In this document: positions 2,424 to 60,721 of the stretch, piece after piece
Position numbering within the stretch: the first letter of the stretch is position 1
Layout: every line of letters begins with the position of its first letter
Source: Bradymonadia bacterium
GTDB taxonomy: Bacteria; Myxococcota_A; Bradymonadia; UBA7976; UBA1532
Direction: 5' to 3'
Assembly (NCBI GenBank): GCA_046290225.1
Contig: JBKAGE010000003.1
Span: 33,244-97,243, forward strand
Length of the DNA stretch: 64,000 nucleotides
Notes under the pieces: model-generated
Database searches by the model: none
What the model was told of the DNA's origin: nothing
The model's input: only the letters and a program-made list of their open reading frames with translations
Program-made: the position numbers and the translations under genes

Positions 2424-3392
2424 GTGGTTAAGAAAATCAAGAAGCGGATCCCCAAGCAGCCCGCTGATGTTGATGCCGGCCTGAGCCCCGATGTCGCTGA
2501 TGGCGGCGTGAGTCCCAGTGATGGGGGTGATCTCGCCACGCTTGCGGCTCCGGCCACTGCCGCTGCGGCTTCCACGGCTTCTGCAGCCGTCTCTGCCTCT
2601 ACCTCAATCGTGCCCGACAGCACATCGACTGATGATGATGGGTTCGGTGATGAGGACGAGGTGCCTTCCGGCAAGCTCGATTTCGGTGACATCGCTGAAG
2701 ACGACTTCGGTCGCGCCACTGCACGTGGTCTGCAGTGGCTCGTCGAGCGCAAGGGCCTCGTCATTGGGGTGGCGCTCGCCGCGCTGGGTGCCTCCATTGG
2801 TGTCTGGTACTCCAACAGCAGCAGTGCCGCGGAGAAGGCCACCACGGCGAAGAGCTTCTTCAGTGGCACTGAGAGTTTCACTGAGGCCAATGCCCCTGCA
2901 GACAAAGACAAGCCAGTCGACACTGCCGCGCTCGTGGAGAGTGCCCGGGCTGACTTCGATCGGCTCAAGAAGGCAGGGCAGGGGACGCCCCTCGCTCAAC
3001 TGGCCGATCTGGGCCTCGCCGGCGCTGCTTTCAAGCAAGGCAAGACCAAGGATGCTGTAGACGGCTACGCCAGCGTTGCCTCCGGGTCCAAGGATCCTAT
3101 GCTCAAGGCGGTTGCCATTCACGGTCGTGCCGTGGCCTGGGAAGATGCGAAGAATTACGGCGAAGCCGTGAAGGCGTGGCAGACCCTCGCCGAGGTCGAC
3201 AAGCCAGCTTTCGGTTTGCTTTCGGGCATTCAGGTCGGCCGTCTCCTCGAGGCTGAAGGTAAGAGCGCCGAGGCCAAGACTCATTACGAGACCATGCAGA
3301 AAGATTTTGCAGAGGATCTCGAGAAGCCCGCCAACCGCTCCGTCAAAGCTGACATCGAGCGTCGGATCGCACGCCTCAAGGGCGGTGCCTGA
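2424..3392 (+). CDS. YfgM-like membrane-anchored TPR protein
   Basis: Low-complexity N-terminus, a single TM helix (GLVIGVALAALGASIGVWY) and TPR-like helices. Lies directly upstream of a BamB-like gene, the conserved yfgM-bamB order. Confidence 0.7.
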   Translation: MVKKIKKRIPKQPADVDAGLSPDVADGGVSPSDGGDLATLAAPATAAAASTASAAVSASTSIVPDSTSTDDDGFGDEDEVPSGKLDFGDIAEDDFGRATARGLQWLVERKGLVIGVALAALGASIGVWYSNSSSAAEKATTAKSFFSGTESFTEANAPADKDKPVDTAALVESARADFDRLKKAGQGTPLAQLADLGLAGAAFKQGKTKDAVDGYASVASGSKDPMLKAVAIHGRAVAWEDAKNYGEAVKAWQTLAEVDKPAFGLLSGIQVGRLLEAEGKSAEAKTHYETMQKDFAEDLEKPANRSVKADIERRIARLKGGA

Positions 3393-3397
3393 GCCTG

Positions 3398-4696
3398 ATG
3401 TTCAAAATCTCAGTCCTCGCTGGCCTTTGTTGTCTACCTTTCGGATGCGCCCGTCCGATCGGCCTCCCTGGGGACGAGCTGCCACACACAGGCAAGGCAA
3501 AGCGTCTGATGCCGACGCACCTCAGCCCAGGTTGGCGTCGCGATTTCAGCGAGGGTCGTCTCGAGACACTCAAGGGTGTTCAGCTGGCGTCACCGGCTGT
3601 TGACGTTGCACGTAACCGCCTCTGCCTGGGCACACCAGATGGCCATCTCGAGTGTATGACTGCGAGTGGTGGTCAAACCCTCTGGCGTAAACGGATCCCC
3701 CCGCGCAAGGCCGGGCAAGAAGGTACACCTCTGAATCTCGAGGCTGCAGCAGCTGTTGCCGAAGCCGAAGCAGATAAAGAGAAGATCAGGCGGACCTCGA
3801 GTCACAGCGCCATCTTCGATGGTGGACAGCTGATCGTCGGCACGGATGACGGTCTTCTGTTGTGTTTGGATTCAGCCTCTGGTGAGGAGATCTGGCGTTA
3901 CGAAGTGCCTGGTGCGCTGATTCGAAAGCCATTGCTGGTCAAGGATCGCGTGGTTTTTGTAGATGGCACCAACACTGTTTACGCCCTTGATCGGAACACC
4001 GGTGCGTGGGTCTGGCAGGTTCAACGGCCACCGCCGGCGGAGTTCGCGCTTTCGAGCGAGGGCGCGCCAGCAAGTGATGGTGAGCGCGTTTACGTCGGTT
4101 TTTCAGATGGCCACCTCGTAGCTCTGAGCCTTCAAGATGGTGCTCAGATCTGGAAGCGTGATCTGGCGCCCGAGCATGACAAGTTCGAGGATGTCGACGC
4201 GACCCCGCAGGTCATCAATGGGACTCTATATGCTGCCTCTGCGGCTTCAGCGCTCTATGCACTTGATCCCAGTACTGGTGATGTCCGGTGGACTCAACCC
4301 ATCGAAGGGATCGTAGGGCTTCACGCTTTCCAGGGTGATCTCATCGCTTCTACCGATCGTTCGACTGTGATCAGACTATCAGGCCATGACGGGAGCAGAC
4401 GATGGCGCCTGCGTTATCCTGGCGGAGCAGCAAATGAGGCTGTGACAGCTGGCCAATATGTCGTGGTGACTCTTGCAGAGATCGGTTTGCAGTTCATCAA
4501 CCCCCATACAGGGCAGCCCATACAGCGGTTCAATCCCGGTCATGGTGTGAGTGCACCGGCAACAGTGACTCCGGAAGGGCACGTTTACTTTGTCGGTGAT
4601 GGCGGGGTGCTCTACAGCCTCGTTCACAGAAAAACCGGACCTGGCCGGAGTACTCGATCCGAAGCGCCTTTTGGTCACTACGGTTTGGACAACTGA
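3398..4696 (+). CDS. BamB-like PQQ-repeat beta-propeller lipoprotein
   Basis: Lipobox-like LPFGC. Repeated 'ALD..TG...W' propeller blades (CLDSASGEEIWRY, ALDRNTGAWVWQ, ALDPSTGDVRWT) and FEDVDATP typical of BamB. Confidence 0.8.
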   Translation: MFKISVLAGLCCLPFGCARPIGLPGDELPHTGKAKRLMPTHLSPGWRRDFSEGRLETLKGVQLASPAVDVARNRLCLGTPDGHLECMTASGGQTLWRKRIPPRKAGQEGTPLNLEAAAAVAEAEADKEKIRRTSSHSAIFDGGQLIVGTDDGLLLCLDSASGEEIWRYEVPGALIRKPLLVKDRVVFVDGTNTVYALDRNTGAWVWQVQRPPPAEFALSSEGAPASDGERVYVGFSDGHLVALSLQDGAQIWKRDLAPEHDKFEDVDATPQVINGTLYAASAASALYALDPSTGDVRWTQPIEGIVGLHAFQGDLIASTDRSTVIRLSGHDGSRRWRLRYPGGAANEAVTAGQYVVVTLAEIGLQFINPHTGQPIQRFNPGHGVSAPATVTPEGHVYFVGDGGVLYSLVHRKTGPGRSTRSEAPFGHYGLDN

Positions 4697-4838
4697 TTTT
4701 TCGGTGAAAAGCAGTTGAGTAGGAGAGGGATCCTGGTTCCTTCTTCTGCTCAACCTGTCATCTAGTTTACATAATATACATTGTGCGACTTTTGGCGACG
4801 ACGGGAGAATGTCGGTCCCATTCGAGATTCTTAGGCCT

Positions 4839-6452
4839 TCAGCCCCGCGCGGACGTCTTGAGTTTACGTTGTACGTAAAGAAGTTCGCTTTGGGCCTCAG
4901 TTGCCCCAGCGTTCACTGAGAGTGCTTGTTTGAAGTACTTCTGGGCGTTCTGCCAGTCACCACGATTGCGATACAAACGACCAAGATAGATGTAAGGCTC
5001 TTCACGTGGCGGGTTCTGGTCGACGAGCTGCTTTAGTTCGGCGAACCCTCTGCTCTGAGGAGACTGAACAGCGTCTATATAGGCCATCCCGGAGAGAGCC
5101 ACGATCTCCTCTGCATTGAGCAAGAGCGCTTCCTGGAAACGACGTCGAGCCACATCGAGCTCGCCATTCTTGAGCAGTCGAGTGCCTTCCTTTACAAGAC
5201 GCTCACTCTGTAGAGCGGACTGAACCATACTCGCGGCATCTTGCCCTGGTGTGCCCATGGACAAGCTCAAGTCGTAGTTTCGCCTCTTCTCGTCATCGAT
5301 CAATACGTGGTAGGCCCGGTTGATCTCCATGAAGACCTTCTTGACCCGGCTCCTCAGCTCCTGATCAATCCCCAACCGAACAAACCGATCGAGATGAAAG
5401 TCTCGGGCCAGACTTCTGAACCTTTCACGGATCTGACCGGCTTCAGCCCCGGATTCCAAACCCATCAGCTCGTAATGATTAAGCTGACCCAGTTGGGCAT
5501 AAAGACTCTCCGCTTGCTTCAATGCTGCACGAGCAGCCTCATCAGCCTTCCGAGCCTTTCGAATCATCGCCTCACGAGGCGCCTTCGATACTGCGTTTGA
5601 TCGTGCTGGGGGCCTGGCGGCCTGTTGAGGTCCAGTCTTCGGAGCGGGCCTGACCGGGCGGCTGGAAGTTGATCCTGTAGTAGACTTCGAAGCCGGCATC
5701 TTAGGCATCACTGCTGGTCGGGGTGAAGGCGCCCTCATGCTCTGAGAAGCAGTAAAAGTGCCCAAACCGCTGATCACCAGGGTGAAAACCTGACGGATCG
5801 CCCGCTCGCCACCCCCCAAAGTCGCCAACAACTTCGAGTAGTCTGCCGGGCCATGATTGATCGCCTGGAACACGTTTGGAGACTTGAAGAGCTTGTTGAA
5901 CAGATCTTCGAGTTGATCCTGGCGAGGTCCGAGTTTCACAGCCTGATGCTGGTAGCGTTCGAGGAACAGCTGACACTGGTCCAGTGTGGCGACAAATGCA
6001 CCGGCGTGGAGCAGGACATCAGGGATCGCCAGGCGGATGTCTCCCTCAAGGCGATGAGTATCGTCGGAGCTGAATTGAAAGCGCCCGTCTTCCCAACGGA
6101 AGACATCCAACAGCCGTAAGCGATGAACCGCTGCCACGTGCTGAACGAATTCGTCTCGGCGGCCAATGACCGAGGCAATGGCATCAAGTGAAGATCCACC
6201 TGTAGCCACCCTGAAGCGGCTGATGGCTTCGCCCTGGTCTGGCGTGAGCACCCTGCCCTTTACCAGGTGGTAGATCACCCCCTCGGTCTTCACGTTCGAA
6301 GACACGTGTACAACCACCCCAGAAGAAATACGGGCCTTCTTCACCAGCCGATTGTTTTGGATCGTGAGACGCCCGCTCAGGCGCCTCTCGGCGATGATCC
6401 TGAGCACCCTGTAGATGCTCAGCGGTTCGAGTTGGCCAGCAGTCAGCCCCAT
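4839..6452 (-). CDS. DUF4388-like / J-domain / TPR protein (myxobacterial type)
   Basis: N-terminal 'SGRLTIQ...LLDVFRWEDGRFQF' (DUF4388/PATAN-like), Pro/Ala/Arg linker, J-domain NHYELMGL...FHLDRF...INRAYHVLIDDEKRRNYD and C-terminal TPRs. Confidence 0.8.
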   Translation of the reverse strand: MGLTAGQLEPLSIYRVLRIIAERRLSGRLTIQNNRLVKKARISSGVVVHVSSNVKTEGVIYHLVKGRVLTPDQGEAISRFRVATGGSSLDAIASVIGRRDEFVQHVAAVHRLRLLDVFRWEDGRFQFSSDDTHRLEGDIRLAIPDVLLHAGAFVATLDQCQLFLERYQHQAVKLGPRQDQLEDLFNKLFKSPNVFQAINHGPADYSKLLATLGGGERAIRQVFTLVISGLGTFTASQSMRAPSPRPAVMPKMPASKSTTGSTSSRPVRPAPKTGPQQAARPPARSNAVSKAPREAMIRKARKADEAARAALKQAESLYAQLGQLNHYELMGLESGAEAGQIRERFRSLARDFHLDRFVRLGIDQELRSRVKKVFMEINRAYHVLIDDEKRRNYDLSLSMGTPGQDAASMVQSALQSERLVKEGTRLLKNGELDVARRRFQEALLLNAEEIVALSGMAYIDAVQSPQSRGFAELKQLVDQNPPREEPYIYLGRLYRNRGDWQNAQKYFKQALSVNAGATEAQSELLYVQRKLKTSARG

Positions 6453-43859: not shown

Positions 43860-46355
43860 ATGATTTCAGAGGGTTTGACGCGGACTGACGAGGTTGATCC
43901 CCTGAGCCGGTTGAGGAGCTTGGGGCAACGGCTCGATGATCTGCTCACACGACAGGCTGAGCTGCTCGATCAGCTCAACCGCTATCACCCGTCCATCTAC
44001 CCCCCTATGTGGCGCGCTCAGCTCGCCCAGCTGCCAGAGGCGGAGATCATGTCGGCCCTGGACGCTTGGGGACGCTGGTCCGACGAGCTCTCCCAATGCC
44101 TGAGCAAGACCGCCGTGGCAGAGCCCGGTACGGCGGCCGCCGAGGAGGCTGATCTCTTCTCCTGCTGGGATGACGAGGAAGACGACGAAGCGGTCTGGGC
44201 CCTTCCGAGCTCAGAGTCCGAGCGCGCTCTCGAGTCTGTCGCAGGATCGACCACTGTGGCCGAGATGGCCCCCTCCGCGCCCCCACCTGCTGAGGAGGCG
44301 TTCCCGGCTCAGCCTGAGCCCACCTTCGCAGAGCCTGAGCCAGAGGTGCAGATCGCGGAGCCTGATCTGAAGGATCTCGAATTCAGTGAGCACGCATCCC
44401 TGGATGCTTTCGGGGAAGAGATGCCGATCGAGGCTGAGGAGGATGCTTGGGCTGCCGTGGCCCTCGAAGCCCCTTCGGCTGACGAGGAGGTGGTGCTCGA
44501 TGCAACCCCTGACTCAACACCTGAAGCCCGAGCTGAGACCCCAATGGAGTTCATTGAAGCCGACTCTTCCGAGATTGACCTCGCCCATGACTTCACAGAG
44601 GCCGGACACAGCTCTGATGATGGAGACGAGGCAGCCTGGACTGAGGAGGGAGATCTCGACGAGCCTGCTCTCACAGATGAATTCGTCGCTGAGATGTTGA
44701 GCCCAGAGGGGGAAGAGCCCCCCATCCTCGAAGAGCCTGCCTTCTCTGAGACCTCAGATCTGGATGAGATGCTTCAGACAGGTGCAGTCGAGCAGGCCGC
44801 CAATGCCGATCCTGAGGAGAGTGTGCTGCCCAGCGAGCATCACGATGAGGCCGTCGAAGATGAGTTCCCGCCTGAAGCGCAATTCGACGTAGAAGACGAC
44901 GCCTGGGAGAGCACTCCCCCTGAGACCGAGCCGGGAGATCAGATCTCGGAAGAGGCAGCCTTCGGCGAAGAGCACGCAGAAGACAGTGCTGATGAAGACT
45001 TCACCGATGGGGGTTTTGTTGATGAGGGCTTTGCTGATGAGGGCACCTCGGAAGCTGCTCTCTCAGAAGAGGCCCTTCCTGATGAGGCGATGTTCGATGG
45101 TGAGATGTCTGAGGCGCTTGCCACAGAGCACGATGTCGACGACCCCGATCAGTACTCGGAGGTGGACTCCGATGAAGAGGAGGCTGCCGCCGCGTTGATG
45201 GAGGGCCTGGATGATGAAGCCGTCTCGGACCCAGAAGCCGCCTCAGACACTGGAGAAGGTGTCGACTGGGGCGCTGAGGCGGACTGGGACACCGACAACA
45301 TCGGCGATGTGTCCGATCCCGACGAGATCATCAACCCGACACCAGATGAGCCCTCTGATGCCGACGAAGAGCTCTCGGAAGACGAAGATCTCGATGCAGC
45401 CTGGGGCGCAGCCCTCGCAGAGGCTGAGGGTGACCCGGAAGCTGGGGGGGATCCGGAGCCCTCAGATGAGCTGACCAATGACATCGAGGCCCTCACTGCA
45501 GCCACCGCCGAAGAAGAAGAGGAAGAGGCGTTGCTCGATCCGGGGACAGCCGGCGAGGTGGACGACCTGTTTCAGGAATTCGACGACGATCCACTGGCAG
45601 ATCTCGATCCTTGGGACTTCGACGAGGGCATGGGAGAGCTCGACCCGGAGAACTTCGGCGCCTCTCTCGGGACCGCAGAGTCCTTTGTCCGCACGAGCCC
45701 TGGTGGCAGCAGTGAAGGCCGAGAGCCGCTGATCGAGGGGCCACGCCCAGCTCAGGGTGAAGATCCGTGGTCTGCCCTCGACACAACACCGGTACCTGTG
45801 GGCAGCGAAGGGGTGAAGTCCATCAACCGCGACGAGATCATGCCTGCGGAGCCTGGCAGTGAAGAGGCGCCCCTGGAAGAGGATTTCGGCAGCATGGAGG
45901 CGGGCTGGCTGGAGACGCTCGGTACAGAGGACTCGCCCGAGGACTTCGCAGCAACGGGTGCAGCGATGGATTCAGCGGGGGGCTTTGGAGAAGACGACGC
46001 TCCGGGTGAAGCCCTGGAGCCTCAGATGATGCATTGTGTCGTCGATGACCACTACGGCTACCGATTCTTCATGGGCGAAGACACCCGGATCGCTTCCGGT
46101 GGGCTCTTCGTACCTTCTGATGAGCCGTTCCCTGTAGGCACCCATGTAGACATCGACTTCGACATCCCCGATGGGCCACAGATCACAGCTCAGACCGTGG
46201 TGGCGTGGCTCCAGACCGTCGAGACAAACGAGCTGCTGCCGGGCATGGCGCTGGCTTTCAAAGAGCTCCTGCCTCAGGACGAAGCGGCCATCGAAGCCTA
46301 TGTGGAGAATTTCGGGGCTCTACCGCCCAAGATCGACTCTGAATTCGATATTTGA
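43860..46355 (+). CDS. Very acidic, largely disordered protein with C-terminal PilZ-like (TIGR02266-type) domain
   Basis: About 600 aa of D/E-rich low complexity. C-terminus IASGGLFVPSDEPFPVGTHV...VVAW...PGMALAF...AIEAYV. Confidence 0.8.
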   Translation: MISEGLTRTDEVDPLSRLRSLGQRLDDLLTRQAELLDQLNRYHPSIYPPMWRAQLAQLPEAEIMSALDAWGRWSDELSQCLSKTAVAEPGTAAAEEADLFSCWDDEEDDEAVWALPSSESERALESVAGSTTVAEMAPSAPPPAEEAFPAQPEPTFAEPEPEVQIAEPDLKDLEFSEHASLDAFGEEMPIEAEEDAWAAVALEAPSADEEVVLDATPDSTPEARAETPMEFIEADSSEIDLAHDFTEAGHSSDDGDEAAWTEEGDLDEPALTDEFVAEMLSPEGEEPPILEEPAFSETSDLDEMLQTGAVEQAANADPEESVLPSEHHDEAVEDEFPPEAQFDVEDDAWESTPPETEPGDQISEEAAFGEEHAEDSADEDFTDGGFVDEGFADEGTSEAALSEEALPDEAMFDGEMSEALATEHDVDDPDQYSEVDSDEEEAAAALMEGLDDEAVSDPEAASDTGEGVDWGAEADWDTDNIGDVSDPDEIINPTPDEPSDADEELSEDEDLDAAWGAALAEAEGDPEAGGDPEPSDELTNDIEALTAATAEEEEEEALLDPGTAGEVDDLFQEFDDDPLADLDPWDFDEGMGELDPENFGASLGTAESFVRTSPGGSSEGREPLIEGPRPAQGEDPWSALDTTPVPVGSEGVKSINRDEIMPAEPGSEEAPLEEDFGSMEAGWLETLGTEDSPEDFAATGAAMDSAGGFGEDDAPGEALEPQMMHCVVDDHYGYRFFMGEDTRIASGGLFVPSDEPFPVGTHVDIDFDIPDGPQITAQTVVAWLQTVETNELLPGMALAFKELLPQDEAAIEAYVENFGALPPKIDSEFDI

Positions 46356-50098: not shown

Positions 50099-50377
50099 GG
50101 ACTCGAGCGTTCAGGTGAGGGCGTTGGGGCCACAAAAGCGGCGAATCATAACGGCCCGGTGGGTGGCTTTCAATTCAGCTGGCCATCTCGGCACCAGAGC
50201 GGGACCATCAGGTCTCACCATGTCGTCATTCGCTGCTGCCGATGTCACACCCTGGCGCGTTCCAAGGGCTCTACACCGTGGCGTACCGCCGGCACACCCG
50301 TTGCTCTGAGGTCCTGATGTATCTGCGCCTCTGCAGCGATGTCTCGGAGGCCACCCTGCGACCACTCAGGAGCCGCC

Positions 50378-51766
50378 ATGCGTCTTCGCCTCGCCGCATT
50401 TGTCATGCTGCCTCTCACCATCGCCATGGGCTGTGGCACCGAACAGGCCGAGTCGCCTACAGGACAGGGCCCACCCCTCGTGAACCCGCCACCCTCTGGT
50501 GAGCGACCGGGACGGGCCTGCGGGGAGGTGGACTACCTGGGCTATTGCCGGGGCACGACGGTGGTCTTCTGTCACAACGGCGCGCTCACTGAGTACGAGT
50601 GTGGCGCTCAGGGATGCGGCTGGATTGACGACGAGACGGGCCACTATTGCGGTGGTGGCGATGCCCCACCAGCGCCCATGGGTCCACCTGAGGTCGATCC
50701 GGAGGAGAATGGCCTCTTCCCGCCTCCAGCCCCTGACAAGCCCGAGGAAGATGACCCCCCGGTTGGGCCTTCTCCCGAGCCGGAGCCCGATCCGGTCCCA
50801 GAGCCTGAGCCCTGGCCCGAAGATCCACCGCCGGACCCCGATCCGAACCCTCAGCCCGATCCCGACCCGGCGCCAGATCCCGATCCTGCGCCAGATCCGG
50901 ACAGAGATCCGCCCCCTGATCCCTTGCCGGACCCAGATCGCGATCCACCCCCTGATCCGATCCCAGATCCCATGGGAGATGACTGCTATTTCGAGCCCTA
51001 CGACGCCGACGCCAATGTGGCGAACGCCGAGGCGATGATGCGCAACAACCCCCAGGGCGCGGCTTCTGCCTTCATCGAAGCTCGCTGGCCGGGAGGGATG
51101 GGCCTGATTCGTACCCGGCAGACCTTCTTCGAGATCCTGAGCACCAACTCGTGGAGCAACTTCCTCGACTCGCTGGCCACGGTCATGCACGAGAACACCC
51201 ACGGGTTCCATGCCGACAACGCGCTGTGGCAGCAACGGGCCACTTTCTACATCCGCGACGACATCAGGCTGCAGGCGAACTGGGTACAGACCCCTGCCCG
51301 CTCGGCCATTCGCCAGCGGCTGCCGGATGACTCGGCAGATCTGTACGCCCGCACCTACCTCACCGGGGAGCAGGGCCAGCGGGGCTTCTTCGACGTCATG
51401 GAAGAGTGGGAGTGCTACATCCACGATCTGGCGACATATTCTGTCGCAGCTGACGGCATCCAGGCCTTCGGCTTCAGCGGTCGCGATGGCGCGGTAGCCT
51501 TCGCCTGGTTCCTGACCCACTACCTGCGGATCCTGCGCACCGAGCACAACCAGACCTGGGAGGCCCTGCGGGCGCAGGCCAATATCAGAGAAGCCATCAA
51601 ACTCGACTGGCTGAAGATGCACTTCTGGCTCATCGAGAGCGATCAGCATCCAAGCCACGGCATCAATGACGACCGCATCCGCGGACACCTGTATCAGGCC
51701 GACAACCTACGTGAACTGGAGTTGTTCCTGGGGTTTGCAGTGACTGACAGTCACTGCCTGCCCTGA
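50378..51766 (+). CDS. Lipoprotein: Cys-rich module, Pro/Asp linker, C-terminal HEXXH domain
   Basis: AGGAG RBS, lipobox AMGC, six-Cys module, (DP/EP)n stalk and VMHENTHG. Confidence 0.8.
   Translation: MRLRLAAFVMLPLTIAMGCGTEQAESPTGQGPPLVNPPPSGERPGRACGEVDYLGYCRGTTVVFCHNGALTEYECGAQGCGWIDDETGHYCGGGDAPPAPMGPPEVDPEENGLFPPPAPDKPEEDDPPVGPSPEPEPDPVPEPEPWPEDPPPDPDPNPQPDPDPAPDPDPAPDPDRDPPPDPLPDPDRDPPPDPIPDPMGDDCYFEPYDADANVANAEAMMRNNPQGAASAFIEARWPGGMGLIRTRQTFFEILSTNSWSNFLDSLATVMHENTHGFHADNALWQQRATFYIRDDIRLQANWVQTPARSAIRQRLPDDSADLYARTYLTGEQGQRGFFDVMEEWECYIHDLATYSVAADGIQAFGFSGRDGAVAFAWFLTHYLRILRTEHNQTWEALRAQANIREAIKLDWLKMHFWLIESDQHPSHGINDDRIRGHLYQADNLRELELFLGFAVTDSHCLP
50770..50970 (+). repeat. Coding Pro-Asp/Pro-Glu low-complexity repeat
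   Basis: PEPEPDPVPEPEP...PDPDPAPDPDPAPDPDRDPPPDPLPDPDRDPPPDPIPDP. Confidence 0.9.
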
Positions 51767-55568: not shown

Positions 55569-56537
55569 ATGGCGACCGATCCCGAGAAGCGGGGGATGCA
55601 CCGCCGTTCTTTCATGCAGACACTTGGCGCAGCGGGCGCGGTGGGGGCCGCGACGACGCTGGTGCCCACGCTCAGCTCTGCCAACCCCGATGAAGAAGCC
55701 GGCTTCGAGGTCGTGGACCTCGCAGCTGAAGGCTTCCCCGAAGATGAGGCCCCTGTCCCCTTCCCTGGCACCGCCGATGAGTACAACGCTCTCGAGCTCC
55801 CCGAGATCGAGCGCCCGGTGCTCGACGAGGGCTTCGAGTATGGCGACGACGCTCTGGTGGACGAGTGGCTCGAAGCCATCGACGCCGGTGACGACATCGA
55901 CGCCCTCGATGCCCGCGATCTGGCTCGGGAGATCATCGCCGAGCAAAAGGCCGAGCTCGCTGCTCGTCGGCGAGAGGTCTACGTCAAGCGTACCTCTGAG
56001 CAGAGCCGCAAGCGCGCAGTGCGCACGGAGCTCCAGGCCCGGCGCCAGCAAGAGGCCGCCCGTAAGCGGGCCGTACGCGCCAGCCAGGAAGAGCAGCGCA
56101 AGAGCAGCCGGAACCGCTTGCGAGAAGAGCACGCCAAGTCGGACGCCCCTGCTCAGGTGCGCCGCGAGGCCCACCAGAAGCGGCGTCAGCGCAACCAGGA
56201 GCAGCGGGTGAAGCAGTCCGCTCAGCGCACTCTGGAGCGACGCAGTTTGGAGAAGGAGCGCAAAGCCCTCGCCGCAGATCGCGCGGAGTGGCGCGAAGCC
56301 CGTGCCGAAGAGCGCGAGGCGATGCAGGCACGCCGGCGAGAGGCCAGGGCCAAGCGCCTCACGTTGCGCCGCCGGGCAGAGCAGAACTTGAAGTCGGAGC
56401 GCCAGTTCGCGGAAGAGAACCAGAAGATGGGCCGCGCGCAAGAGCAGGGCTCCAAGCGCCGGGCTGCTGAAGAGAAGCACAAGCGCGCCGAGCTGGATCG
56501 CGACCGCGAAGAGCACGCCAAGCAAGAGATCCGGTGA
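55569..56537 (+). CDS. Tat-exported protein with acidic segment and 14 ExxxK motifs (candidate precursor A)
   Basis: Strong RBS AGGAGGGAG, twin-Arg HRRSFM, h-region and SSA cleavage site. Acidic middle, Arg/Glu/Gln-rich C-terminal half. Confidence 0.85.
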   Translation: MATDPEKRGMHRRSFMQTLGAAGAVGAATTLVPTLSSANPDEEAGFEVVDLAAEGFPEDEAPVPFPGTADEYNALELPEIERPVLDEGFEYGDDALVDEWLEAIDAGDDIDALDARDLAREIIAEQKAELAARRREVYVKRTSEQSRKRAVRTELQARRQQEAARKRAVRASQEEQRKSSRNRLREEHAKSDAPAQVRREAHQKRRQRNQEQRVKQSAQRTLERRSLEKERKALAADRAEWREARAEEREAMQARRREARAKRLTLRRRAEQNLKSERQFAEENQKMGRAQEQGSKRRAAEEKHKRAELDRDREEHAKQEIR

Positions 56538-57970
56538 CGGCAGACACACCGAGACATCGCCTCGTCGATGACTTTCTGTCACCAAACCAGGTGAGCACCC
56601 TGAGAGCGTTGGTCCTTCACCAGGCTGACGCTGCCGACTGGGCTCAGAGTGACGTGGGTCGCGTCGGTGAGCTGCTGGCCACCGAACACCCCGCGCTCAA
56701 CGCCCTCGTGGCAAAGCTCGACACGCTCATCGGTTTGCCGACCGCGCTCGAGCCCTTCGTCCGCTGTCGCATCGCCGAGGCAGGTGCCAGCCATCCGGCC
56801 CACCTCGACACATATGTCATGGATGGCTGTGCGCTGGTGGCAACGGCGCTGGTGTATCTCGACGCAGTGGAAGGCGGTCACACAGTCTTCGAGTCGGTGG
56901 AGCCCCCAATGGCCGTAGCGCCCCAACCTGGGCGGGCGCTGGCCTGGCTCAACGTACGCGGTGACGGTCGGCCTGATCCACGCTCCGAGCACGCCATCGA
57001 GGCGGTGAAATCGGGTACCCGGACCACCTTGACCTGGTTTGTGTATGCCACGCTCGAGGCTGCTCAAGAGGCAAGGCTGCGAGGCCTCGAATCTGATGCA
57101 GCACCGCTCATCGCCGATCTCGACGCGCCCACCACCGGGCCTCGGTTCTACTGCATCGACGATGGTGTGCCTCAGGAGACCGTACGCTCTCTCTATGATG
57201 CCTGCACTGCTCGAGGCTTGACCTTCGTGCGGGTGAGGCCTCGAGAGGTGGATCCCCGCCGTGGCCCCCTGGAGGTTGGCGCTCTGCTCTACACACCCTC
57301 GACGAGCATGGTGGCAGAGCGCATGGAGCAGCGCCTCTGGCGACCGGGCGTGGTGACGTTCCATCGCCGCCCGGAGGGACCATTCGTCAGCACGCTCAAC
57401 CCGCTGCTGGCTTTCGAGCGCGCTGGTTTGCCCGTCCCTCGCTGGCTCCAGGTAGAGACAGCCCCAGGAGACAAACTCGAGGGCTGGGTGGAGTGGCTCG
57501 GTGGCTTGCCGATTGTGGTCAAGTCAGGCGGCGGTGAGGGCGGCGTAGGCACCCTGCGGGCCGACTCCATGCCGGCCTTGAGATCATTGCTTGATCTACT
57601 CCTGCACCAGGGGCGCACGCCCACACTGATGGAGTATGTGCCCGAAGCTGTGCACCTGCGCCTGGTCGTCGTCGGTGACGATGTGGTGACCTGTTATCGC
57701 AACCCTGTGCGCTCAGGCGATTTCAGGAGCGAGCCCAGCATCGACGCTGCCGACTACGACATCGAGGCCGAGCCTGACATCATCGAGTTGGCGGTTCGAG
57801 CCAGCGAGGTGGTCGGGTACGCCTTTGCCGGGGTGGACGTCTTGATCGATCCTGAGGGCGGTCGATGGCTGCTCGAAGCCAACTTCCCCTGCTACTTCCC
57901 CCAAGCAGAGACCTTCGGCGCCGACGTCGCTGGTGCCATGATCGACCATCTCACGCGGCTGGCCCCCTGA
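56534..57970 (+). CDS. 2OG-Fe(II) oxygenase (prolyl-4-hydroxylase-like) fused to RimK-type ATP-grasp ligase
   Basis: Oxygenase: HLD, TALVYL...EGGHTVF, PGRALAW, EH...V.SGTR. Ligase: LPIVVK, GEGGVG, MEYVP, RLVVVG, GDFRS, AGVDVL, LLEAN. GTGA overlap with the upstream gene. Confidence 0.9.
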   Translation: MTADTPRHRLVDDFLSPNQVSTLRALVLHQADAADWAQSDVGRVGELLATEHPALNALVAKLDTLIGLPTALEPFVRCRIAEAGASHPAHLDTYVMDGCALVATALVYLDAVEGGHTVFESVEPPMAVAPQPGRALAWLNVRGDGRPDPRSEHAIEAVKSGTRTTLTWFVYATLEAAQEARLRGLESDAAPLIADLDAPTTGPRFYCIDDGVPQETVRSLYDACTARGLTFVRVRPREVDPRRGPLEVGALLYTPSTSMVAERMEQRLWRPGVVTFHRRPEGPFVSTLNPLLAFERAGLPVPRWLQVETAPGDKLEGWVEWLGGLPIVVKSGGGEGGVGTLRADSMPALRSLLDLLLHQGRTPTLMEYVPEAVHLRLVVVGDDVVTCYRNPVRSGDFRSEPSIDAADYDIEAEPDIIELAVRASEVVGYAFAGVDVLIDPEGGRWLLEANFPCYFPQAETFGADVAGAMIDHLTRLAP

Positions 57971-58037: not shown

Positions 58038-58496
58038 ATGTCGGAGAAATCATCCACACCCAACACCGAAGGACTGGATCGGCGGGCATTTGTCACCACG
58101 ATGGCTGCCGCTGGGGCTGTAGTGCTGGCGCCACAGCTGGCCCACGCTCAGGTCGATGATCAGGCTGGCTTCGAAGAAGGCGCCCCCACCGAGAAGGCGC
58201 CGCAAGAGGGTGCCGCGGATACACCTGCAGCCGCAGCGAAGCGCCGTCGGGCGGAAGAGGCTCACAAGCGCAAGAAGCAAGCCGCCCCGACACAGCGGGA
58301 GGAAGCGCAAAAGCGCACACCCATGGTGAAGCGACGCCGGCTCGAGCAGGCGAAGAAGGCCCAGACCGAAGAGCAGACGAAGAAGCGCGCCGCGCCCACT
58401 GACACCCCCCAAGATGCTCAACCTGAAGGGCAGTCTCAGGGTCGTCACCGCGAGGCTGCCCGCAAGCGGGGCAAGCGCTCTGCCATCAGGAAGTAG
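58038..58496 (+). CDS. Tat-exported small protein with 5 ExxxK motifs (candidate precursor B)
   Basis: RBS GAGGAGGGAG, twin-Arg DRRAFV, AHA cleavage site, DDQAGFEE. Motifs EEAHK, EEAQK, EQAKK, EEQTKK, EAARK. Confidence 0.85.
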   Translation: MSEKSSTPNTEGLDRRAFVTTMAAAGAVVLAPQLAHAQVDDQAGFEEGAPTEKAPQEGAADTPAAAAKRRRAEEAHKRKKQAAPTQREEAQKRTPMVKRRRLEQAKKAQTEEQTKKRAAPTDTPQDAQPEGQSQGRHREAARKRGKRSAIRK

Positions 58497-59941: not shown

Positions 59942-60721
59942 ATGAACCACCCAACAGCTGCTGCACTTCTCTTGTTGACCGCTGTGACGACGCACGTGGG
60001 CTGTGATGACGATGACACATCGTCGACCAACATGCCTGATGCCGCGCAAGCTGCCGAATCCGACGCCTCCATCGATGCCAGCCTTCCCGAACCTGACGCG
60101 ATGATGATGCCGGATGCCGATCTCCCCGACATGGCGCCACCCGCACCCACCGACGTGGAGCTCGCCGCGGACTGGCTCACGGGTGACTTCAACAGTCGAG
60201 CCCAGGCCATGGCCGATCGGCGCTACTTCGACGTACACCTCTACGCGATCCAGATCTGGCCTGATCGTGAAGACGGCGCGTGGATGTATGTGCAGCAGTC
60301 CCGAGACGACAATGACGACGGCACTTACGAGGCACCCTATCGCCAACGTGTCTACTGGGTGCACGGTGAAGGCGATGGGGTAGTCAGTACGGTGTACCGC
60401 ATCGAAGACGAAGACCAGTTCGTCGACCCCTGGAACGACCTGTCGGTACTCGACGCCCTCAGCGAAGAGAGCCTCACCCTCGCCGAAGGCTGTGATGTCC
60501 GCCTCACCCGGATGGGCGAGACCTTCGTCGGTGGCACTGAAGGCACAGCATGTCGACTGAGCTTCGGTGGCTACGCCACCTCTGCGGTCACGCTCTCCGA
60601 AACCGGCTTGCGGAGCCTCGATCTGCTTTACGACGACGGCGGGAACATCATCAATGGTCTCACCGAAGACTCCACACCGTACACCTTCGACAAGCTCGAG
60701 AACTTCCCCCTCGCTCAGTGA
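59942..60721 (+). CDS. CpcT/CpeT family beta-barrel lipoprotein
   Basis: Lipobox HVGC. WLTGDFNSRAQA, IWPDR..GAWMYVQQ, PYRQRVY, GCDV, C...FGGYATSAVTL, PYTFDK. Confidence 0.85.
   Translation: MNHPTAAALLLLTAVTTHVGCDDDDTSSTNMPDAAQAAESDASIDASLPEPDAMMMPDADLPDMAPPAPTDVELAADWLTGDFNSRAQAMADRRYFDVHLYAIQIWPDREDGAWMYVQQSRDDNDDGTYEAPYRQRVYWVHGEGDGVVSTVYRIEDEDQFVDPWNDLSVLDALSEESLTLAEGCDVRLTRMGETFVGGTEGTACRLSFGGYATSAVTLSETGLRSLDLLYDDGGNIINGLTEDSTPYTFDKLENFPLAQ

Follow-up and report, generated by a model that had tools for sequence, protein, structure and literature searches.

Putatively exported helical proteins with repeated Glu-x-x-x-Lys motifs beside a RimK-like ATP-grasp ligase: a candidate helix-stapling system

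The 64,000-nucleotide stretch of Bradymonadia DNA analysed here (the window) encodes a protein, ORF A, in which Lys is almost confined to the fourth position after Glu, and whose gene overlaps that of a 2-oxoglutarate (2OG) oxygenase fused to a RimK-like ATP-grasp ligase. The combined evidence from the sequences strongly supports chemistry at the Lys amine of the ExxxK motifs. In our preferred reading, to which we assign a probability of roughly 0.68, the ligase would join Glu(i) to Lys(i+4) as lactams along an extended helix ahead of export, and the oxygenase may hydroxylate the product. The system is apparently undescribed and widespread.

ORF A and its ExxxK motifs

ORF A starts at an ATG preceded by a purine-rich ribosome-binding site, and the protein collection holds a 322-aa record for it. 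The features of the locus are as follows.

55569..56537, + strand: ORF A, putative substrate protein of 322 aa, with a Tat signal, an acidic spacer and a long helix carrying 14 ExxxK motifs
55569..55682, + strand: predicted Tat (twin-arginine) signal peptide, approximately aa 1–38, with RRSFMQ and a hydrophobic stretch; the cleavage site is approximate
55683..55958, + strand: acidic spacer, aa 39–130, with 31 D/E against 4 K/R, containing AGFE
55974..56522, + strand: ExxxK core, in which 14 Glu-x-x-x-Lys motifs follow one another without overlap along a helix predicted to be continuous
56534..57970, + strand: fused enzyme gene, 478 aa, whose GTG start overlaps the ORF A stop (GTGA)
56543..57061, + strand: 2-oxoglutarate/Fe(II) oxygenase domain with a prolyl-4-hydroxylase fold; H90-x-D92, H153 and R163 are present
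56555..56570, + strand: weak terminator-like hairpin just 3' of the ORF A stop
57134..57967, + strand: RimK-like ATP-grasp ligase domain (PF08443, E=3.8e-14)
58038..58496, + strand: ORF B, putative second substrate of 152 aa, with a Tat-like signal followed by AGFE

ORF A is a predicted Tat substrate with an N-terminal twin-arginine signal, which scored 19.3 bits against TIGR01409 (above the cut-off of 16.7) and 20.1 bits against PF10518 (below the cut-off of 22.7). The acidic spacer was modeled with largely low confidence; its AGFE sequence is also found in ORF B. The core extends from the Glu of EVYVK at position 55974 to the end of the Lys in the last EEHAK at 56522. Single-sequence AlphaFold2 predicted one long helix for the core, comprising residues 110–190 and 195–321 with a break at SDAPA and a pLDDT mostly about 85–97. 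Terminator-like hairpins numbered six in the region, with 1.8 expected by chance; the one behind ORF A might, speculatively, be an attenuator.

The first-pass annotation, made from the sequence of the window, had described a near-restriction of Lys to the E+4 position, and this was borne out by the count: 14 of the 17 Lys residues after the signal peptide are at E+4, K229 and K303 lie inside motifs, and K127 lies outside. In 12 of the 14 motifs an R, Q or A precedes the Glu, also as described. When the 183-aa core was shuffled 20,000 times at constant composition, E→K(+4) pairs numbered 2.5±1.4, compared to 14 in the actual sequence (z 8.3), and no shuffle reached 14. E→R(+4) was depleted, at 2 against 6.6 expected, and the distribution of K and R at E+4 was strongly skewed (14/16 vs 2/42, Fisher p=1.3e-9). 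The five E→K(+3) pairs (p 0.08) all derive from EExxK motifs, while K→E(+4) and K→E(+3) each occurred once, against 2.5 expected. R→E(+3) was mildly raised (12 vs 6.6), and was the sole ER/K-type pairing tested that was raised.

The DNA itself could have been the source of the repetition, but this was rejected, in agreement with the annotation: TRF called no array in the core, its one hit being a 14-bp unit in 1.9 copies at 56439-56465, and the motif codons are diverse apart from two EEHAK motifs that are identical at 17 of 18 nt. Within its own genome, ORF A ranked first among 92,180 six-frame ORFs in a motif search (binomial 1e-9; the next ORF had 4e-5). The enrichment also exceeds that of ordinary charged helices. 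In 112 other E/K/R-rich segments, K was found at E+4 in 159 of 792 cases (20%) and R in 215 of 1192 (18%), and the best control segment reached 50% K at E+4, compared to 14/17 (82%) in ORF A. An arrangement of the motifs on one face of the ORF A helix was considered and not seen (Rayleigh p 0.7); it was significant in one of eight proteins tested.

The annotation had argued that a salt-bridged single α-helix would accept Arg equally well, and that Lys must therefore have been selected for chemistry at its ε-amine. The premise was somewhat too simple. The PDB statistics in the available part of PMC5347031 show that E–K pairs do favour +4, that K→E(+4) ranks above E→K(+4), and that E–R salt bridges are commoner. 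Since this order is opposite to that of ORF A, helix electrostatics do not give the one-way, Lys-only pattern, and because Arg avoids E+4 and Lys→Glu pairs in the opposite direction show no enrichment, the ORF A core is not an ordinary salt-bridged helix. The conclusion itself survived, now supported by the intact ATP-grasp ligase whose gene overlaps that of ORF A and by the tracking of the motif with the enzyme clade (see below).

ORF B has a weaker version of the same pattern, with six E→K(+4) pairs at five sites between 58254 and 58466, compared to 1.6 expected (p=0.00125); the K-versus-R test alone was not significant (p=0.10). Its signal scored 13.2 bits against TIGR01409, below the cut-off of 16.7. 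ORF A ends in EIR and ORF B in IRK, so that neither has a C-terminal Glu.

Homology searches with ORF A found nothing but ORF A itself at E<=1e-5 among 8000 candidates, and the ESM Atlas gave zero feature matches and, by structure, generic helices only. Substrates were instead located via the enzyme loci, as the sequence of ORF A did not retrieve homologues. In three orthologues, the motif Glu and Lys keep register and the three inner residues vary. The orthologues at L001, L003 and L075 have a fused RRE. ORF A appears to work without one, because a profile search of its genome found no RRE (best E 0.08), as did a second profile that included three misaligned rows.

The fused enzyme and its linkage to the motif

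The 478-aa enzyme was modeled at a pLDDT of 94, and no signal peptide was evident in it. The oxygenase domain aligned to 2jij over 165 residues (VIA Z 19.7, rmsd 1.9), and among non-gap rows of the alignment H90 was conserved in 28/30, D92 in 26/30 and H153 in 28/30. PF13640 matched homologues, though not the window protein itself. Across the loci, the oxygenase is fused N- or C-terminally, encoded by a separate gene, or absent, and it is therefore an accessory in this family.

The ligase domain is best matched in structure by RimK (Z 26.3, rmsd 2.6, 267 aligned residues), with RimK, ArgX and LysX spanning Z 26.3–24.1; the graspetide synthetases PsnB (Z 20.4) and MdnC (Z 18.6) are lower. R376, R398, D435, E448 and N450 are invariant in 51 of 51 aligned sequences, and K330 is K or R in 50 of 51. 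We take these five invariant residues to be catalytic from the alignment with RimK. The clade has its own motifs, DFRS-x-x-S and EANFPCYF. It has no conserved Lys where RimK has its first ATP-binding Lys, and it does not keep the Asn of the RimK FRSN loop, position 400 being variable. All scores against the RimK and LysX models were below the cut-offs (TIGR00768, 73.2 bits with a cut-off of 143.4; NF007764, 53.6 and 331; TIGR02144, 44.1 and 275.6), and the score against the graspetide model TIGR04187 was 28.7 bits with a cut-off of 350; no other graspetide model was listed for the enzyme at E<=1. The ligase thus falls outside the graspetide family as defined by that model.

The window's own genome also contains a full-length oxygenase–ligase paralogue (G000:C76:36287-37750, minus strand) with 29% identity. 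Its ligase motifs and H-x-D site have decayed and it has no ExxxK neighbour; it is possibly a pseudo-enzyme. Two distant relatives, P0090 and P0101, have two tandem ATP-grasp domains, the second apparently without catalytic motifs.

A scan of species-representative genomes yielded 46 loci with a relative of the enzyme, from Myxococcota, Planctomycetota, Acidobacteriota, Pseudomonadota, Actinomycetota, Hydrogenedentota and others; some are close kin (for example, five from Nannocystis), so the counts that follow are not independent. An ORF enriched for E→K(+4) at p<1e-3 was present in 28 of the 46 loci, compared to 0–3 for 15 other residue and spacing pairs; K→D(+4) was enriched in none. When short proteins with one to five motifs were included by eye, 39 loci had a motif ORF, although the small cases are individually weak. 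Of the seven others, six run into a contig end, which leaves L016 as the one genuine exception. In two fragmented genomes (L075, L121), multi-motif substrates are found off the enzyme contig.

L016 (L016:2066-2302 and 3210-5459) is a ligase-clade locus with a 78-aa NHLP-like peptide that ends DQRVSKLHSGDGEVWGINS, the last residues being DQRVSK, and with a gene that by eye resembles an RRE-M50 peptidase. The peptide is probably a different type of substrate.

A forward test used 17 genomes of the host phylum with strong matches, of which six repeated earlier loci and were dropped. A multi-motif neighbour lay within 1.5 kb in nine of the remaining 11 loci; in a tenth, the neighbour bears a signal and has one motif only, at its terminus. 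The eleventh, the intact locus G084, had no ExxxK neighbour within 15 kb. Six matches at the level of RimK (30–34% identity) had no ExxxK neighbour within 1.5 kb, and a long branch separated them from the enzyme clade (SH-aLRT 100) in a quick tree that left out graspetide synthetases, five duplicate rows and short or broken matches.

In the host family, the enzyme was found in 11 of 27 genomes, and a profile of the RRE–Tat leader hit the same 11; seven of these had supplied rows to the profile, which makes the test partly circular, and several of the 16 double-negative genomes are incomplete. Full-length phmmer searches gave 122 representatives at E<=1e-30, and the enzyme was present in 30 of 301 sampled genomes of the host phylum, about a tenth, at E<=1e-40.

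Substrates in the homologous loci

After removal of nine near-duplicates, 42 substrates were reduced to a non-redundant set of 33, in which the share of K is circular because the proteins were chosen by motif. The set contains 352 motifs, and Pro is absent from positions +1, +2, +3 and +5, where about 27 would be expected at 1.9% Pro. The lack of Pro at these positions suggests a helical turn. DxxxK was counted just 20 times. The motifs almost never overlap, and their spacing peaks at 8 and 11 residues. In homologues with a spacing of 8, K→E(+4) pairs arise as well (120 counted, compared to one in ORF A), and for these proteins the connectivity is ambiguous.

Substrates carry from one to 39 motifs, with 14 in ORF A and a single one at L017 and L116; where a locus has no more than one or two motifs, as several do, the call is individually weak. 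The backgrounds are Arg-rich, Gln-rich or Ser/Ala-rich. In most substrates, a PqqD/RRE-like domain is combined with a Pro-Pro linker and an internal Tat-like segment. Overall, however, the N-termini vary between RRE plus Tat-like, Tat, Sec-like (by eye, at L059, L060 and L116), double-Gly-type (L018, L044) and no evident leader (L030, L032, L037, L101, L103). The PqqD/RRE matches and double-Gly leaders are features of RiPP precursors. No peptidase or transporter recurred among 35 non-redundant loci.

Several substrates have additional features. Two acidobacterial proteins (L038:5873-6658 and L039:3236-4285, the latter on the minus strand) have 17–18 motifs, preceded by a Tat-like segment and followed by a PEP-CTERM-like tail, which in L039 scored 20.6 bits against PF07589, with a cut-off of 20.7. 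The protein at L041:4627-4977 has a C-terminal domain of ~120 aa resembling the tube proteins of contractile injection systems (PF19266 clusters, Atlas 0.94), a likeness that is a lead only and has no Pfam match. Similar tails were found at L005:4298-4696, L006 (three copies), L087 and L105; at L006, three tailed ExxxK substrates surround two enzyme genes. Two proteins (L019:4009-4944, L035:4148-4975) have a signal- or lipoprotein-like N-terminus before the RRE and lack the twin-Arg segment. At L122:1249-1959 (minus strand), the RRE plus Tat-like architecture precedes a short Cys-rich core; since this core lacks ExxxK, the leader type is common to other, non-ExxxK systems.

Proposed stapling reaction, alternatives and known systems

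The arrangement suggests that the adjoining ATP-grasp ligase acts on both ORF A and ORF B. The cytoplasmic enzyme would use ATP to phosphorylate the side-chain carboxylate of the motif Glu, and the Lys amine one helical turn further on would attack the acyl-phosphate, closing a Glu(i)–Lys(i+4) lactam. ORF A could receive up to 14 such staples and homologues up to 39. An acid and a primary amine one turn apart are the sole feature common to the substrates, and they are found beside an amide-forming enzyme, which makes a lactam the most economical product. E(i)–K(i+4) lactams stabilise helices. The fused oxygenase would then probably hydroxylate the lactam, as in corallotide (below), or it might be an activating partner. 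Because the N-termini of the substrates are unrelated, what the enzyme appears to recognise is the ExxxK motif in its helix, not a leader.

Modification would take place before export, since the ligase needs ATP and has no evident signal peptide. The stapled protein would then be exported, in the case of ORF A by Tat, a pathway that suits folded, modified cargo. Three features, namely the export signals, a membrane anchor present in some homologues and the missing protease, suggest that the product would be used largely intact, as a rigid, protease-resistant rod that may be surface-anchored or displayed in some species, and not as released peptides. We hold this last step, the structural role as an intact rod, only tentatively, at somewhat less than even odds. 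A broader proposal falls just short of an even chance: a RimK-derived clade independent of the graspetide synthetases would be a leader-independent stapler of full-length proteins, exported as rigid rods for the cell surface or for tube-like assemblies, and the reaction would be a structural modification of proteins, not a route to small peptides. Several observations count against stapling: in structure, the ligase resembles the known macrocyclases less closely than it does RimK and LysX, enzymes that couple free amino acids to protein carboxylates; a conserved Lys at the position of the first ATP-binding Lys of RimK is missing; the intact loci L016 and G084 have no ExxxK neighbour; the K→E(+4) pairs of homologues with a spacing of 8 leave their connectivity ambiguous; calls on loci with one or two motifs are weak; and the ORF A motifs are not aligned on one helix face.

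As RimK, ArgX and LysX, the nearest relatives in sequence and structure, are intermolecular ligases, the enzyme might instead modify the motif Glu carboxylate with a free amino acid or amine, or, by activating a free acid, couple it to the Lys amine; the other residue of the pair would then serve only for recognition. We consider this unlikely, because it leaves the one-turn spacing of acid and primary amine unexplained, with neither Asp nor Arg accepted, and the loss of the FRSN-loop Asn also argues against it. Protein substrates of RimK and LysX (S6 and LysW) have a C-terminal Glu, which ORF A and ORF B lack. Glu–Lys bonds could also form between chains, giving a covalent polymer or filament of antiparallel helices. 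The lack of a conserved peptidase or transporter, together with the PEP-CTERM or tube-like ends of some substrates, would suit such a structural product. We nevertheless give cross-linking little credence: ring closure calls for just such a fixed i,i+4 spacing within the chain, a cytoplasmic ATP-dependent enzyme would polymerise the protein ahead of export, and L017 and L116 have single-motif substrates.

The oxygenase, with its intact iron site and its presence in many loci as a fusion at either end or as a separate gene, could be the enzyme that acts on the motif, hydroxylating Lys or Glu, while the ligase acts elsewhere. This is hardly probable, as many loci that match just the ATP-grasp part keep motif-rich substrates (e.g., L003, L023, L025, L037-L040), and the C76 paralogue, in which the ligase site has decayed, has no motif neighbour. 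That the core is an ordinary salt-bridged single α-helix or coiled coil with an incidental enzyme neighbour is very improbable. The core is indeed E/R/K/A/Q-rich and predicted to be helical, its structural look-alikes are generic long helices, and E–K pairs favour +4 in the PDB. However, depletion of E→R(+4) without enrichment of K→E(+4) is the reverse of the PDB order, control segments of the host have only 20% K at E+4, and the motif recurs beside the enzyme clade in unrelated sequence backgrounds. Like the ER/K single α-helices in the accessible portion of PMC5347031, ORF A has a long, charged, Pro-poor predicted helix rich in E, R and K; unlike them, it uses one pairing only, with Lys only, and lacks the two-way Lys/Arg pattern at +3 and +4 by which they are recognised.

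For stapling, the closest precedent is corallotide, a graspetide of group 15 from the cor cluster of Corallococcus exercitus. According to the part of PMC13097080 available to us, corallotide receives five K(i)–D(i+4) lactams from its ATP-grasp ligase, and a PF13640 oxygenase then brings about Lys δ-hydroxylation and activates the ligase, so that chemistry of this kind is shown to be feasible. Both systems combine a large precursor, repeated five-residue amine/acid motifs, an ATP-grasp ligase and a 2OG oxygenase, here with a P4H fold, an H-x-D...H site and PF13640 matches in homologues, and the i,i+4 lactam formed in corallotide is the bond proposed here. As far as that source goes, the two differ in the direction of the motif, the clade of the enzyme, the leader and the size of the substrate. 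Corallotide has five copies of KxxxD, whereas the present substrates have 1–39 copies of ExxxK, acid first, on long Pro-free helices. Its ligase belongs to TIGR04187, whereas the RimK-like ligase is far below that cut-off; its cluster includes a PF13640 oxygenase, whereas the oxygenase here is fused or optional; and the β-lactamase-like CorD of its cluster has no recurrent counterpart in our loci. The corallotide group is reported there only from Corallococcus, while the present system spans many phyla, and the substrates here carry export-type signals, unlike corallotide. In a passage on lactams, K(i)–D(i+4) is singled out as the most effective helix inducer; the passage does not extend to E(i)–K(i+4).

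In the graspetides more generally (microviridin, plesiocin, myxomiditide), as far as covered by the available parts of PMC12848669 and PMC8939145, a ribosomal precursor with multicore repeats is likewise combined with an ATP-grasp enzyme. Macrolactams between Lys and acidic residues are known there, for example the (KxxE)n lactams of myxomiditide (PMC12848669), and are proposed here. Thr/Ser donors and a conserved peptidase or transporter were not found in our loci, nor was a leader motif in common with graspetides apparent among the varied N-termini. The ligase does stand beside a ribosomal precursor with a donor and acceptor pattern, the 14 ExxxK motifs in register, and the system appears graspetide-like in its working. 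We have not filed it as a graspetide, because the enzyme falls outside the family model and the motif is not that of group 15. The Tat/RRE–ExxxK repeat is absent from the 174 graspetide family consensuses in the accessible part of PMC8939145. Among the rows listed in the PMC13097080 table, 51 from Nannocystis and 13 of 19 from Hydrogenedentota all belong to other groups; eight motif strings matched no precursor there, although groups 34, 35 and 41, with long repeat precursors, could overlap. The available portions of two RRE papers (PMC12710340, PMC7470986) make no mention of this architecture, and full-text searches of literature outside subscription journals listed no description of the system.

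With RimK, LysX and ArgX, the ligase shares its best sequence and fold matches and the acyl-phosphate active-site residues; it differs in forming a separate clade, in scoring below the family cut-offs and in having a dedicated, motif-bearing protein partner. We infer a distant variant of known chemistry, set apart by its separate enzyme lineage, its reversed motif, helical substrates on the scale of proteins, predicted export and an apparent independence of leaders. This suggests that side-chain macrocyclisation arose a second time among ATP-grasp enzymes, and that RiPP machinery (RRE, double-Gly leaders) is connected with proteins that are exported or anchored at the surface. If so, the modification would occur in about a tenth of the sampled genomes of the host phylum and be scattered over other phyla. 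Stapling by i,i+4 lactams is a standard chemical means of helix stabilisation, and a genetically encoded, apparently leader-free stapler of a five-residue motif in many sequence backgrounds could be put to direct use in libraries and recombinant proteins. The system is present in cultured Nannocystis strains, which makes native testing possible.

Elsewhere in the window, the 475-aa product of positions 50339-51766 is lipoprotein-like, has a repeat linker rich in PDP and matches nothing in Pfam. A CpeT/CpcT-family protein (PF06206, E=1.6e-31) with a lipoprotein-like N-terminus is encoded at 59942-60721, with no evident phycobiliprotein context around it. An 831-aa, extremely acidic low-complexity protein is encoded at 43860-46355; by eye, it ends in a C-terminal segment that we take to be PilZ-like.
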